Below are positions 1,978-56,480 of a stretch of DNA of 64,000 nucleotides, in pieces. The stretch is from Mobula hypostoma (taxonomy: Eukaryota), in contig NC_086097.1 of the NCBI RefSeq assembly GCF_963921235.1, positions 168,518,001 through 168,582,000 on the forward strand, given 5' to 3'. Position 1 is the first letter of the stretch. Each line of letters opens with the position of its first letter. The notes under the pieces were generated by a model. The model did not search any database. It had not been told where the DNA came from and was given only the letters and a program-made list of their open reading frames with translations. Position numbers and translations under genes: made by a program.

Positions 1978-2048
1978 CTTTTACAGAACTGGCAGGTATA
2001 CGACCAGGTGAAGATGGAGAACCTCTTCGTTCGGCAACAGAAACATAA
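1978..2048 (-). CDS. SPIRE1: SPIRE1 exon (about exon 15), 71 nt, [23 protein letters not shown](R) (start of FYVE-type zinc finger)
   Basis: ctctctacag|TTA...AAAAG|gttcgc, phase 0/2; two CxxC pairs; correct frame not in ORF track. Confidence 0.95.
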
Positions 2049-13529: not shown

Positions 13530-13667
13530 CTTCCCCTTCTTCAAGGCAGTGTAGATATCTTTGTATTGCTGGTACTTCTCGAGTTCCGCTTTCACCAGGA
13601 CCTGACGAATGTGCATCACTTCCTCCACTGTCAGAGCCAAGCATTCTACCGGGTAACAGAACTCCTC
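13530..13667 (-). CDS. SPIRE1: SPIRE1 exon (about exon 14), 138 nt, [46 protein letters not shown] (Spir-box)
   Basis: ttacag|GAG...AAG|gttagg, phase 0/0; matches recalled SPIRE1 Spir-box peptide. Confidence 0.97.
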
Positions 13668-17600: not shown

Positions 17601-17774
17601 CTTTGGTCTCTTCCACCTGCTGGTAATGACTCCCTCACACAGTAAATACACCGCCCCAATGATGCCAAACAACGCAGCTTCCACAGGGTAAGAGTTAAGC
17701 ATGGAGGCTGCTTGAATGGTTGGAAAAAACGGTTGGAGATTCCTCCGAGGTAATAAACTGCTTAGCCTGGACAC
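17601..17774 (-). CDS. SPIRE1: SPIRE1 alternative exon 13/ExonC (mitochondrial outer-membrane anchor), 174 nt, VSRLSSLLPRRNLQPFFPTIQAASMLNSYPVEAALFGIIGAVYLLCEGVITSRWKRPK
   Basis: gtccag|GTG...AAG|gtttgc, phase 0/0, 58 codons, no stop; hydrophobic segment followed by basic RWKRPK; colinear with recalled human ExonC. Confidence 0.93.
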
Positions 17775-18504
17775 CTGGACAACAGATAAATGGTTACAAG
17801 GAAGGTCTGCATGGGCATTCTTGATCAGAGCCACGGTTTCTGGCCTTAGCCACAGCCAGACACTTTCAGTAACAACAGACGACAGACTCGGCAACCTGGG
17901 CTAACATTTCCTTCCAAATATAGATGATCCTGTGAGTAGGGGAAAAGGTGGATAGTAGTCAGGGGCTTGAGGTGGATAGTAGTCAGGGGCTTGGATCAGT
18001 CACCCAGAGAGGAAAAGGCCATCAATTTGTTACGGGCCTCTGCTGCCATTTGGGTGCCCACTAAGATTGCACTGAGATCCTACAGGGCAGCAAGAGACTC
18101 CCCTGTTCATCAACATTTGAGTTATACAGCCAAGAAACAGGCCCTTCAGCCCAATTCATCCATGATGAACAAGGTGCCTTTCTAAGCTAGTCCCATTTGA
18201 CGGAGTTCTGCTCATAGGCCTCTGAACATCTCCTTTCCATGAACCTGTCCAAGTGCCTTTTAAATGTAATTGCACCTCTATCACTTTCCCTGGCAACCCT
18301 TTCCATTCAGCAAACACTGTTTGTGAGATAAATTTTGCCCTTCAGATCTCTTTTCAATCTTCCTCCTCTCCCCTGAAACTTCCACTGCATCTATACCTCT
18401 TATGATTTTATACTGTACACCTCTAAAAGATCATCCTCCAGCCTTCAGGAGAAACACTCCCAGCATTGCCTCTCCAGTCCCAGCAACCTTCTTGTGAATC
18501 CTGA

Positions 18505-19667: not shown

Positions 19668-22280
19668 TCAGAATCAGAATCACTGTTTATTATCACTGGC
19701 ATGTGACATGAAATTTGTTAACTTAACAGCAGCAGTTCAATGCAATACACAATCTAGCAGAGAGAAAAAAAATAAAATAAAAAAATAAACAAGCGTATCA
19801 ATTACATATATTGAATAGATTTAAAAACATGCAAAAACAGAAATACTGTATATTAGAAAAAAGTGAGGTAGTGTCCAAAGATTCAATGTCCATTTAGGAA
19901 TTGGATGGCAGAGGGGAAGAAGCTGTTCCTGAATTGCTGAGTGTGTGCCTTCAGGCGTCTGTATCTCCTACCCGATGGTAACAGTGAGTAAAGGGCATGC
20001 CCTGGGTGCTGGAGGTCCTTAATAACGGACGCTGCCTTTCTGAAACACCACTTCTAAAGATGTCCTGGGTACTTTGTAGGCTAGTACCCAAGATGGAGCT
20101 GACTAGATTTACAACCTTCTGCAGCTTCTTTCGGTCCTGTGCAGTAGCCCCTCCATACCAGACAGTGATGCAGCCTGTCAGAATGCTCTCCACGGTACAA
20201 CTATATAAGTTTTTGAGTGTATTTGTTGACATACCAAATCTCTTCAAACTCCTAATAAAGTATAGCTGCTGTTTTGCCTTCTTTATGACTACATCGATAT
20301 GTTGGGACCAGGTTAGATCCTCAGATGTCTTGACACCCAGGAACTTGAAGCTGCTCACTCTCTCCACTTCTGATCCCTCTGAGGATTGGTATGTGTTCCT
20401 TCGTCTTACCCTTCCTGAAGTCCACAATCAGCTCTTTCGTCTTACTGATGTTGAGTGCCAGGTTGTTGCTGCAGCACCACTCCACTAGTTGGCATATCTC
20501 ACTCCTGTACGCCCTCTCATCACCACCTGAGATTCTACCAACAATGGTTGTATCGTCAGCAAATTTATAGATGGTATTTGAGCTATGCCTAGCCACACAG
20601 TCATGTATATACAGAGAGTAGAACAGTGGGCTAAGCACACATCCCTGAGGTGCACTAGTGTTGATCGTCAGCGAGGAGGATATGTTATCACCAATCCGCA
20701 CAGGTTGTGGAGTTAGGAAGTCGAGGATCCAATTGCAGAGGGAGGTACAGAGGCCCAGGTTCTGCAACTTCTTAGTCAGGATTGTGGGAATGATGGTATT
20801 AAATGCTGAGCTATAGATGTAGGTGTCTGTGTTGTCCAGGTGGTCTAAAGCCGTGTGGAGAGCCATTGAGATTGCGTCTGCCTTTGACCTATTGTGGCGA
20901 TAGGCAAATTGTAACGGGCTTAGGTCCTTGCTGAGGCAGGAGTTCAGTCTAGTCATGACCAACCTCTCAAAGCATTTCATCACTGTAGATGTGAGTGCTA
21001 CCGGGCGATAGTCATTAAGGCAGCACACATTATTCTTCTTAGGCACTGGTATAATTTTTGCCTTTTTGAAGCAAGTGGAAACTTCTGCCCGTAGCAGTGA
21101 TAGGTTGAAAATATCCTTGAATACTCCCACTAATTGGTCCGCACAGGTTTTCAGAGCCTTACCAGGTACTCCATTGGGACCTTCCGCCTTGCGAGGGCTC
21201 ACTCTCTTTAAAGACAGTCTAACATTGGCCTCTGAAATGGAGATCACAGGGTCATCAGCTGCAACAGGGATATTCACAGCTGTAGTTGTGTTCTCCATTT
21301 CAAAGCTTGCATAGAAGGCGTTGAGTTCATCTGGTAGTGAAGCATCGCTGCCATTCATGGGTTTCGCTTTGTAGCAAGTAATGTCTTGCACACTCTGCCA
21401 GAGTTGCTGTGCATCTGATGTCGCCTCCAACCTAATTCGAAATTGTCTCTTCACCCTTGAAATAGCCCTCCGCAAACCATACCTGATTTTCTGGTACAGG
21501 CCTGGGTTGCCAGACTTGAATGCCACAGATCTAGCCTTCAGCAGACGAAGTACCTCCTGGTTCATCCACAGCTTTTGGTTTGGGAATGTACAGTAAGTCC
21601 TTGTAGGCACACACTCATCCACACAGGTTTTAATGTAGTCAGTAACAACTGCAGCATACTCATCCAGGTTCGAAGATGAATCCTTGAATACAGTCCAGTC
21701 CACCGATTTAAATCAGTCCTGTAGGTGCTCCTGTGCTTCCCTTGTCCATACCTTCTTGGTCCTCACTGCTGGTGCTGCAGTCTTCAGTCTCTGCCTATAC
21801 TCAGGGAGTAGAAGTACAGCCAGGTGATCAGACTTCCCGAGGTGAGGGCATGGAAAAGCACGGTAGGCATTCTTGACGGTGGTGTAGCAATGGTCCAGTG
21901 TGTTGTTTCCTCTGGTATTGCAAATGATCTGTTGATGGTAATTGCTTAGTGATTTTTTTCAGACTGGCCTCGTTAAAATCTCCCAAAATGATGAAGATGT
22001 TAGGGTGCGCTGTTTTGTGCATGTTGATCCCATTACTCAGATCATCTAAAGCCTGCTTGACGTTGGCCTGAGGTAGAATGTAAACTGCTACCAAAGTGAC
22101 GCCAGAGAACTCCTGTGGTAGGTAAAAAGGATGGCACTTTACTGCTAGATATTCCAGGTCTGGTGAGCAGAGTTGGGACAGCACTGATATATTTGTGCAC
22201 TAAGAGGAGTTGATCATGAGGCATACTCCTCCACCTCTGCTTTTGAGAGGCTCTGTAGATCTATCCTGACGGTGTATAGT
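19668..22280 (-). mobile_element. Rex1/Babar-like LINE, about 2.6 kb, with 460-aa ORF fragment (RT) and frameshifts
   Basis: [38 protein letters not shown]; (TTCTGA)n 3' tail. Confidence 0.92.
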
Positions 22281-25244: not shown

Positions 25245-25387
25245 CAGAGACTTGGAACTCTGTCTAGTGGGAGGAAGGAACTGACGTACATTGGTTGGCG
25301 TTTCCTTCTCAATAGAGTGCCGTCTTTGCGGAGCTTTCCGCCGCTCAGGCTGTGGTGTTGAGGAGATGGGTAGGAACATTGGAGGAC
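25245..25387 (-). CDS. SPIRE1: SPIRE1 exon (about exon 12), 143 nt, (S)[47 protein letters not shown]
   Basis: cctcag|GT...CTG|gtaagt, phase 1/0; highly conserved SPIRE1 peptide. Confidence 0.96.
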
Positions 25388-29546: not shown

Positions 29547-29637
29547 TTTTTTTGCCATTTGGTGTCTCTGGGGAGCTTTCTTCCACCCTCAGTGTTGATC
29601 CACTGGAACTGCTCCTCACAATTTTAATTCGGTCCTC
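29547..29637 (-). CDS. SPIRE1: SPIRE1 exon (about exon 11), 91 nt, EDRIKIVRSSSSGSTLRVEESSPETPNGKK
   Basis: tttagcag|GAG...AAAA|gtaagt, phase 0/1; bridges the phases of the flanking exons exactly; Ser run in the same place as recalled mammalian EETLHKSTSSSS..., otherwise divergent. Confidence 0.85.
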
Positions 29638-29695
29638 CTGCTAAACAGATCGGGGCATACATAATTAAGTATGACACCATGACAGCAAGTATTTC

Positions 29696-29697
<2 letters not shown>

Positions 29698-29729
<32 letters not shown>

Positions 29730-29765
29730 GTTGGTGTGTGTGTAGTGTGTGTGTGTGTATAGTTG

Positions 29766-29798
<33 letters not shown>

Positions 29799-29870
29799 GT
29801 TGGTGTGTGTGTAGTGTGTGTGTGTGTGTGTATAGTATGCATAGTGTGTGTGCACGCATGTGTGCAGTGT
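29698..29870. repeat. Compound (TG)n/(CA)n microsatellite with recurring TATAGTTGG interruptions
   Basis: Directly visible. Confidence 0.95.
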
Positions 29871-37857: not shown

Positions 37858-38108
37858 GCCTGTTCTGGGACTGACGGCCTGTCTATGTGTGTGAGGGGGC
37901 GGGTGGGTGAGAGGATGGTTAACAGCCTGTTCTGGGACTGACGGCCTGTCTAGGAGTGTGAGGGGATGGGTGGGTGAGAGGATGGTTAACAGCCTGTTCT
38001 GGGACTGACGGCCTGTCTAGGAGTGTGAGGGGGCAGGTGGGTGAGAGGGTGGTTAACAGCCTGTTCTGGGACTGACGGCCTGTCTATGAGTGTGAGGGGA
38101 TGGGTGGG
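37858..38108. repeat. 67-bp tandem repeat, about 3.7 copies
   Basis: aacagcctgttctgggactgacggcctgtct... recurs at 37921, 37988 and 38055. Confidence 0.92.
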
Positions 38109-40602: not shown

Positions 40603-40766
40603 CTCGGAATCGGAGCTGTCTATCTCAGCCAGCGTAGGTGCCTTCAGCAGTTTCTTTCTCTGGACCCGTATGGCACAAGGGTCGCTTTCAGTAGTTTGAG
40701 ACATGACTGCTCCATTGGCCACAAGCGGTGACAGGTCCTTTCTGCTCTTTTCTGGGGTCGCCACAT
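40603..40766 (-). CDS. SPIRE1: SPIRE1 exon (about exon 10), 164 nt, DVATPEK...QRKKLLKAPTLAEIDSSDSE (myosin-V globular-tail binding motif)
   Basis: tttacag|AT...GAG|gtaaag, phase 1/0; GTBM motif LLKAPTLAE. Confidence 0.95.
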
Positions 40767-44096: not shown

Positions 44097-44138
44097 CTGA
44101 CCAGTCAAAACTGTGAGATATGCTAAGTGGTCTCCTTA
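44097..44138 (-). CDS. SPIRE1: SPIRE1 42-nt alternative cassette exon (about exon 9), (V)RRPLSISHSFDWS
   Basis: tttttcttacag|TAAGG...TCAG|gtaaag, phase 1/1, CTAAC branch-like motif upstream; resembles recalled mammalian AMRPLSMSYSFDLS. Confidence 0.9.
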
Positions 44139-49962: not shown

Positions 49963-50092
49963 CAATACGATTGCGTCGAATCTCATCCGGTGACACAGGC
50001 CGTAGTTTCCGTTCAGACTTGATTTCCTCCAATATTCTCTCGTGAAGGCTCCGTGGACGAGGTGGGGTTGGTTTCAGTTTTCGGGCAGATGC
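49963..50092 (-). CDS. SPIRE1: SPIRE1 exon (about exon 8), 130 nt, [43 protein letters not shown] (linker 3 + WH2-D)
   Basis: Manual translation, not in ORF track; aaaaag|GCA...ATTG|gtgagt, phase 0/1. Confidence 0.96.
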
Positions 50093-56393: not shown

Positions 56394-56480
56394 GGGATTT
56401 AATGGAGGACGAGAACGGATGAACTCCAGGATCATCTCATGGGCGCTCTTCTTCAATTTTGGAGGGATGTTCCCATTCAC
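56394..56480 (-). CDS. SPIRE1: SPIRE1 exon (about exon 7), 87 nt, [29 protein letters not shown] (WH2-C region)
   Basis: ctacag|GTG...CCC|gtgagt, phase 0/0; near-identical to recalled vertebrate SPIRE1 [29 protein letters not shown]. Confidence 0.96.

Follow-up and report, generated by a model that had tools for sequence, protein, structure and literature searches.

Introduction

Among the closest described counterparts of the exon analyzed here is ExonC (exon 13) of mammalian SPIRE1, which by itself targets GFP to mitochondria (Manor 2015, PMC4574297; Straub 2020, 10.1101/2020.06.19.161109). These two studies disagree on membrane topology and on the partner formin. Manor 2015 reported that the C terminus of the isolated exon is protected and proposed that the isoform works with INF2 in mitochondrial division, whereas Straub 2020 found the C terminus of the full protein to be cytosolic, favored insertion as a helical loop, described strong co-localization with FMN formins and little with INF2, and tied the isoform to a myosin-5-dependent restraint of motility. 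In mouse brain, the exon 13 form is reported to be minor and exclusive of exon 9, and the turkey SPIRE1 gene is reported to have a 174-nt skipped exon whose inclusion depends on the tissue (PMC9922982).

The age of the exon has also been addressed. Straub 2020 described it in Callorhinchus milii and dated it to the jawed-vertebrate ancestor, and Kollmar 2019 (10.1101/591974) treats it as a feature of vertebrate SPIRE1 that is lacking in hagfish; our literature search found no paper on exon 13 in lamprey. Exon 13 is thus already published, and annotated, in cartilaginous fish. Here, we describe its ray counterpart and compare it with these systems.

Results

Nine SPIRE exons in a devil ray window

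The window, by which we mean the whole 64-kb stretch of DNA analyzed, contains nine exons, all on the minus strand, that we placed by TBLASTN with a ray SPIRE protein and numbered by counting back from exon 13. When spliced, they form one open frame with no stops, 347 residues long with exon 13 and 289 without it. The longer product is identical at 347/347 positions to isoform X1 of the NCBI Mobula hypostoma "spire homolog 1-like" model and at 345/347 positions to M. birostris X1, which identifies the source as a devil ray and bears out the chondrichthyan origin suggested in the initial annotation. The exons are as follows:

Exon 7, 56394..56480, minus strand: WH2 region; TBLASTN map and open frame; a loose end in the RNA contigs
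Exon 8, 49963..50092, minus strand: WH2 region; TBLASTN map, RNA contigs and open frame
Exon 9 (exon B), alternative, 44097..44138, minus strand: 42 nt, 14 aa, intact; both inclusion and skipping in RNA contigs
Exon 10, 40603..40766, minus strand: bears a KAPTLAE stretch, which we take to be part of the myosin-5 binding motif; protein match, RNA contigs and open frame
Exon 11, 29547..29640, minus strand: 94 nt, the size of the gap that the X3 contig leaves between its pieces of exons 10 and 12
Exon 12, 25245..25387, minus strand: donor CTG/GTAAGT; spliced to exon 13 in an X3 contig and directly to exon 14 in an X6 contig
Exon 13 (ExonC), 17601..17774, minus strand: 174-nt phase-0 cassette, 58 aa, with an apolar core (residues 33-46) and a basic tail; homology and RNA contigs
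Exon 14 (Spir-box exon), 13530..13667, minus strand: the M. birostris model and the human protein agree at 46/46 residues
Exon 15, 1978..2048, minus strand: start of the FYVE-type zinc finger; donor AAG/GTTCGC; boundaries by protein match only

Some features of the surrounding sequence deserve mention in their own right. The acceptor of exon 8 (50092, minus strand) is purine-rich (GGAAAAAG; 8/17 upstream pyrimidines), yet it is used in RNA contigs. The intron separating exons 12 and 13 draws very high repeat depth and holds a 463-residue stop-free frame (20324-21712, minus strand) that, by its motifs, looks like a LINE-type reverse transcriptase. The SPIRE1 introns also contain a 67-nt tandem repeat (3.7 copies, 37858-38108) and a TG microsatellite (29698-29831), while an exact 24-nt tandem duplication (17946-17993) lies ~170 nt upstream of the exon 13 acceptor.

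Exon 13 is intact and homologous to mammalian ExonC

As the initial annotation had described it, exon 13 (17774 to 17601) is an intact, frame-preserving exon of 174 nt, encoding 58 residues with no stops and lying at phase 0 between exon 12, which ends at 25245, and the Spir-box exon, which starts at 13667. Its acceptor (...CCAG/) stands behind a pyrimidine-rich tract, and its donor reads AAG/GTTTGC. This donor matches the consensus at 5/9 positions, the lowest score among the nine exons, tied with exon 15; four other donors of the SPIRE1 exons in the window match at 6/9. The initial annotation had seen in the non-consensus donor a fit to a regulated cassette, but since exon 15 scores equally and is not reported to be skipped, the argument is weak on its own and does not discriminate. 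Translated past the donor, the sequence reads K-V-C in the ray, in Callorhinchus and in three avian-looking sequences, and K-V-G in others. Because K-V-C is shared by the first three, the non-consensus donor looks old, judging from protein read-through rather than DNA.

The identity of the exon follows from its homology to the human segment, its position and its host gene. Aligned without gaps to the human segment (P0041), it is identical at exactly 32/58 residues, the figure given as approximate in the initial annotation, while none of 100,000 shuffles of the peptide reached 32 matches (maximum 13). This is below the identity to human of the neighboring exons, 42/47 and 46/46. The human segment itself shows, by eye, three differences from mouse ExonC as printed in Manor 2015. 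The shark-region search gave 140 matches, the best 120 of which all have the 58-aa segment at the exon 13 position; having been chosen by likeness to the exon, they show conservation among carriers, not frequency of carriage. Eleven columns are invariant in the resulting 121 rows (V1, R3, P9, S24, L26, E32, A33, G37, G40, L45 and W54). A Callorhinchus milii fragment (UniRef100_A0A4W3GEH1, P0134), obtained in a separate search, has exon 12 followed by the same exon, with 26/56 aligned residues identical, and the frame is conserved from chimaera to human. At a finer scale, residue 50 is Ile in the window and in M. hypostoma models, Phe in six other chondrichthyan models, and Tyr or Leu in two, and the contigs of a close relative list two changes in the exon, one synonymous and one nonsynonymous.

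No Pfam family corresponds to exon 13, and no donor family was seen among 1.84 billion representative sequences, which gave 17 matches. Of the 11 inspected, 8 correspond to the SPIRE1 exon and the other 3 are noise from repeat-rich sequence; 4 more show the tail of the exon, P0104 was already a named sequence, and P0132 falls outside those inspected.

The initial annotation had proposed that this splice switch dates to at least the jawed-vertebrate ancestor, a date that it thought might be new unless the exon was already annotated. The date agrees with the one stated in Straub 2020 (10.1101/2020.06.19.161109), and NCBI models from ten or more species of sharks, skates and rays contain the exon. 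The novelty is therefore lost, by the annotation's own reasoning.

Exon 13 is a cassette exon

Evidence for splicing comes from four of six runs (X1, X2, X3 and X6), belonging to two studies; none is recorded as RNA, and we took them to be RNA from their GT-AG joins. As repeats crowd the joint table, the joins of exon 13 were read from contig coordinates. Contigs drop rare forms, and their depth is a poor measure of expression. Exon 13 is included in 3/4 runs (X1, X2 and X3) and skipped in 1/4 (X6). In X3, from organism A and with no differences from the window, a 2,978-nt contig has exons 14, 13 and 12 contiguous over 455 nt, the exact sum of their lengths. In X6, from the closely related organism B, which differs from the window at few positions, exons 14 and 12 directly abut over 281 nt of a 3,305-nt contig. 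In X1, the exon lies within a 2,250-nt contig that shows no differences from the window. In X2, it forms a separate 231-nt contig with a depth of 134.8, and an exon 12 contig alongside it has a depth of 212.9, which suggests that X2 carries both forms. From these included and skipped contigs, exon 13 is a true cassette exon, with skipping seen only in organism B, and the junctions thus agree with the behavior foreseen in the initial annotation.

Exon 9 is mostly skipped in X1 (depth of 94.7 for the skipping path vs. ~19 for inclusion) and included in X2, X3 and X6. Since the minor exon 9 path (~19) was retained in X1 while the exon 13 contig is unbroken, inclusion of exon 13 in this run is suggested to be high. 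Moreover, one X3 contig has exons 9 and 13 on a single unbroken path, bearing in mind that contigs do not phase single molecules. The two exons are also combined in 19/120 database models, mammals included, among the best 120 of 140. Among the papers listed by a literature search that lacks most subscription journals, we found none on exon 13 inclusion levels in sharks or rays.

The host gene is SPIRE1

The KIND domain (PF16474, E 1e-70) is present in the M. birostris model P0002, its exons lying outside the window, and the WH2 cluster, Spir-box and FYVE-type finger of the ray gene were assigned by identity to human SPIRE1. Exon 13, at C1:168.536 Mb, is flanked by a CEP76 C2 domain ~280 kb away (C1:168.815 Mb) and, on the opposite side, by an M41 peptidase ~235 kb away (C1:168.297 Mb), which we take to be AFG3L2. 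These flanks presumably match the human gene order AFG3L2-SPIRE1-CEP76. The Spir-box identity, the presence of both SPIRE1-specific alternative exons and the flanking genes identify the host gene as SPIRE1, not SPIRE2 or SPIRE3.

Two SPIRE loci were found in G000, by searches that score best candidates only, so that there may be a third paralogue. The second gene, at G000:C55:43.94-43.98 Mb (L005-L009), is 67% identical in the Spir-box exon and is probably SPIRE2; its equivalents of exons 11 and 12 were not located. The initial annotation had suggested searching for the exon at such loci: no exon-13-like sequence was found in 40 kb of this gene, either by TBLASTN or with a profile of 41 unique segments (best score, -2.3 bits). 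Two M41-peptidase loci lie 0.9 and 1.5 Mb from it. Two weak genome matches (L002 and L003, E 4 and 9) were treated as chance, their 3.1 kb having shown no further SPIRE exon.

A predicted two-helix membrane anchor

AlphaFold, run with a 28-row alignment, predicts two helices in ray exon 13 (residues 18-27 and 30-54; mean pLDDT 66, pTM 0.32), with confidence limited to residues 31-50 (pLDDT 82-89). The prediction resembles the helix-loop-helix predicted for mouse. Two conserved glutamates bracket the apolar core of 14 residues, and the basic tail comes after it. The core is more hydrophobic in cartilaginous fish, the best 19-residue Kyte-Doolittle mean being 1.47-2.24 in seven chondrichthyan sequences vs. 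0.89-1.09 in four tetrapod ones.

Discussion

The window exon, a cassette, is very probably the ray orthologue of SPIRE1 ExonC (exon 13), and its inclusion likely moves the actin nucleator SPIRE1 off vesicles and onto the outer membrane of mitochondria. The data presented here establish the exon, with its frame, homology and two splice forms, and each step past splicing is carried over from mammals. By that analogy, the 58 residues would fold into two helices, one short and the other longer and hydrophobic, that insert into the outer membrane, most likely looping in so that both ends stay cytosolic. The KIND and WH2 domains would recruit formins and nucleate actin on mitochondria, the myosin-5 motif would recruit MYO5, and actin and MYO5 together might dock mitochondria and assist their constriction. 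We regard such loop insertion with actin/myosin-5 docking as the most likely arrangement in the ray. The transmembrane helix and INF2-linked fission assumed in the initial annotation represent one side of the published disagreement (Manor 2015, PMC4574297); the mammalian data favor a helical loop with cytosolic ends and support myosin-5/FMN docking besides fission with INF2.

Three other readings were weighed. One takes the exon for an open frame that arose by chance, or for a relic no longer spliced; it would fit with the poor donor (just 5/9) and with the finding that 5/44 AG-174-GT stretches in the two introns flanking exon 13, between exons 12 and 14, are stop-free by chance. Such stretches not being rare, the case for the exon stands on homology and RNA joins rather than on its frame, and it is precisely these that refute this reading, to which we give practically no credence: spliced contigs contain the exon, matching the window exactly in X1 and X3, and it stays in frame from chimaera to human. 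A little less remote, although still very improbable, is that the gene is one of the paralogues, SPIRE2 or SPIRE3; the exon would then predate the duplications within the SPIRE family. The NCBI name "spire homolog 1-like" and the SPIRE3 reported in chondrichthyans leave room for this, but the ray Spir-box exon is identical to human SPIRE1 at 46/46 positions, both SPIRE1-specific alternative exons are present, the flanking genes fit SPIRE1, and the more divergent gene on G000:C55 has nothing like exon 13 in the 40 kb examined.

Localization is where an alternative carries some weight. More hydrophobic anchors favor the ER in tail-anchored proteins, and each of the 7 chondrichthyan segments scored has a higher hydropathy than the 4 from tetrapods, which could change the choice of organelle. 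The exon could then be orthologous and nonetheless send SPIRE1 to the ER, or to the ER and mitochondria, strict mitochondrial targeting being a later tuning. We consider this unlikely, since the exon shares its length, spacing, basic tail and E32/A33/G37/G40/W54 pattern with that of mammals, in which it suffices for mitochondrial targeting. Mitochondrial anchoring of an orthologous SPIRE1 cassette therefore remains our preferred reading.

What the ray adds is limited by the fact that the jawed-vertebrate date, while true, is already in print. The ray data confirm the exon through RNA joins that document inclusion as well as skipping, and hint that the inclusion level of exon 13 and its coupling to exon 9 differ from mouse brain. 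We lean, by a little, toward a broader view, in which the exon 13 form may be the predominant SPIRE1 transcript of some devil ray tissues and may be spliced together with exon 9. The "minor, mutually exclusive" pattern of mouse brain would then not represent vertebrates in general, and the more hydrophobic chondrichthyan anchor might also differ in its choice of organelle. The divergent chondrichthyan sequences, with their 11 invariant positions, could guide tests of anchor insertion.

Known systems close to the window gene include the NCBI "protein spire homolog 1-like" models of Mobula hypostoma (XP_062915647.1 and others), M. birostris, Pristis, Hypanus, Leucoraja and sharks. Exon 13 is present in 9/9 members of the M. 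hypostoma isoform X1 cluster; these models are automatic and bear no mitochondrial-isoform label. The Callorhinchus milii exon is likewise a chondrichthyan copy, 26/56 identical, and the K-V-C past its donor is consistent with a shared non-consensus donor, but it comes from a holocephalan and spans 56 residues by alignment, not 58. The turkey SPIRE1 cassette (PMC9922982), whose inclusion depends on the tissue, resembles the ray exon in its 174 nt and its occurrence in a non-mammal, and is matched to ExonC by length and gene alone. Finally, the mammalian Spire1C/mitoSPIRE1/SPIRE1-E13 isoform (PMC4574297; 10.1101/2020.06.19.161109) shares with the ray the gene, the position between exon 12 and the Spir-box, the 58-aa length, the frame-preserving cassette, 32/58 residues, two predicted helices and a basic tail. 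The ray exon differs from it in having a more hydrophobic core, in an inclusion that is apparently major, not minor, in some runs, and in lying on one contig path with exon 9.
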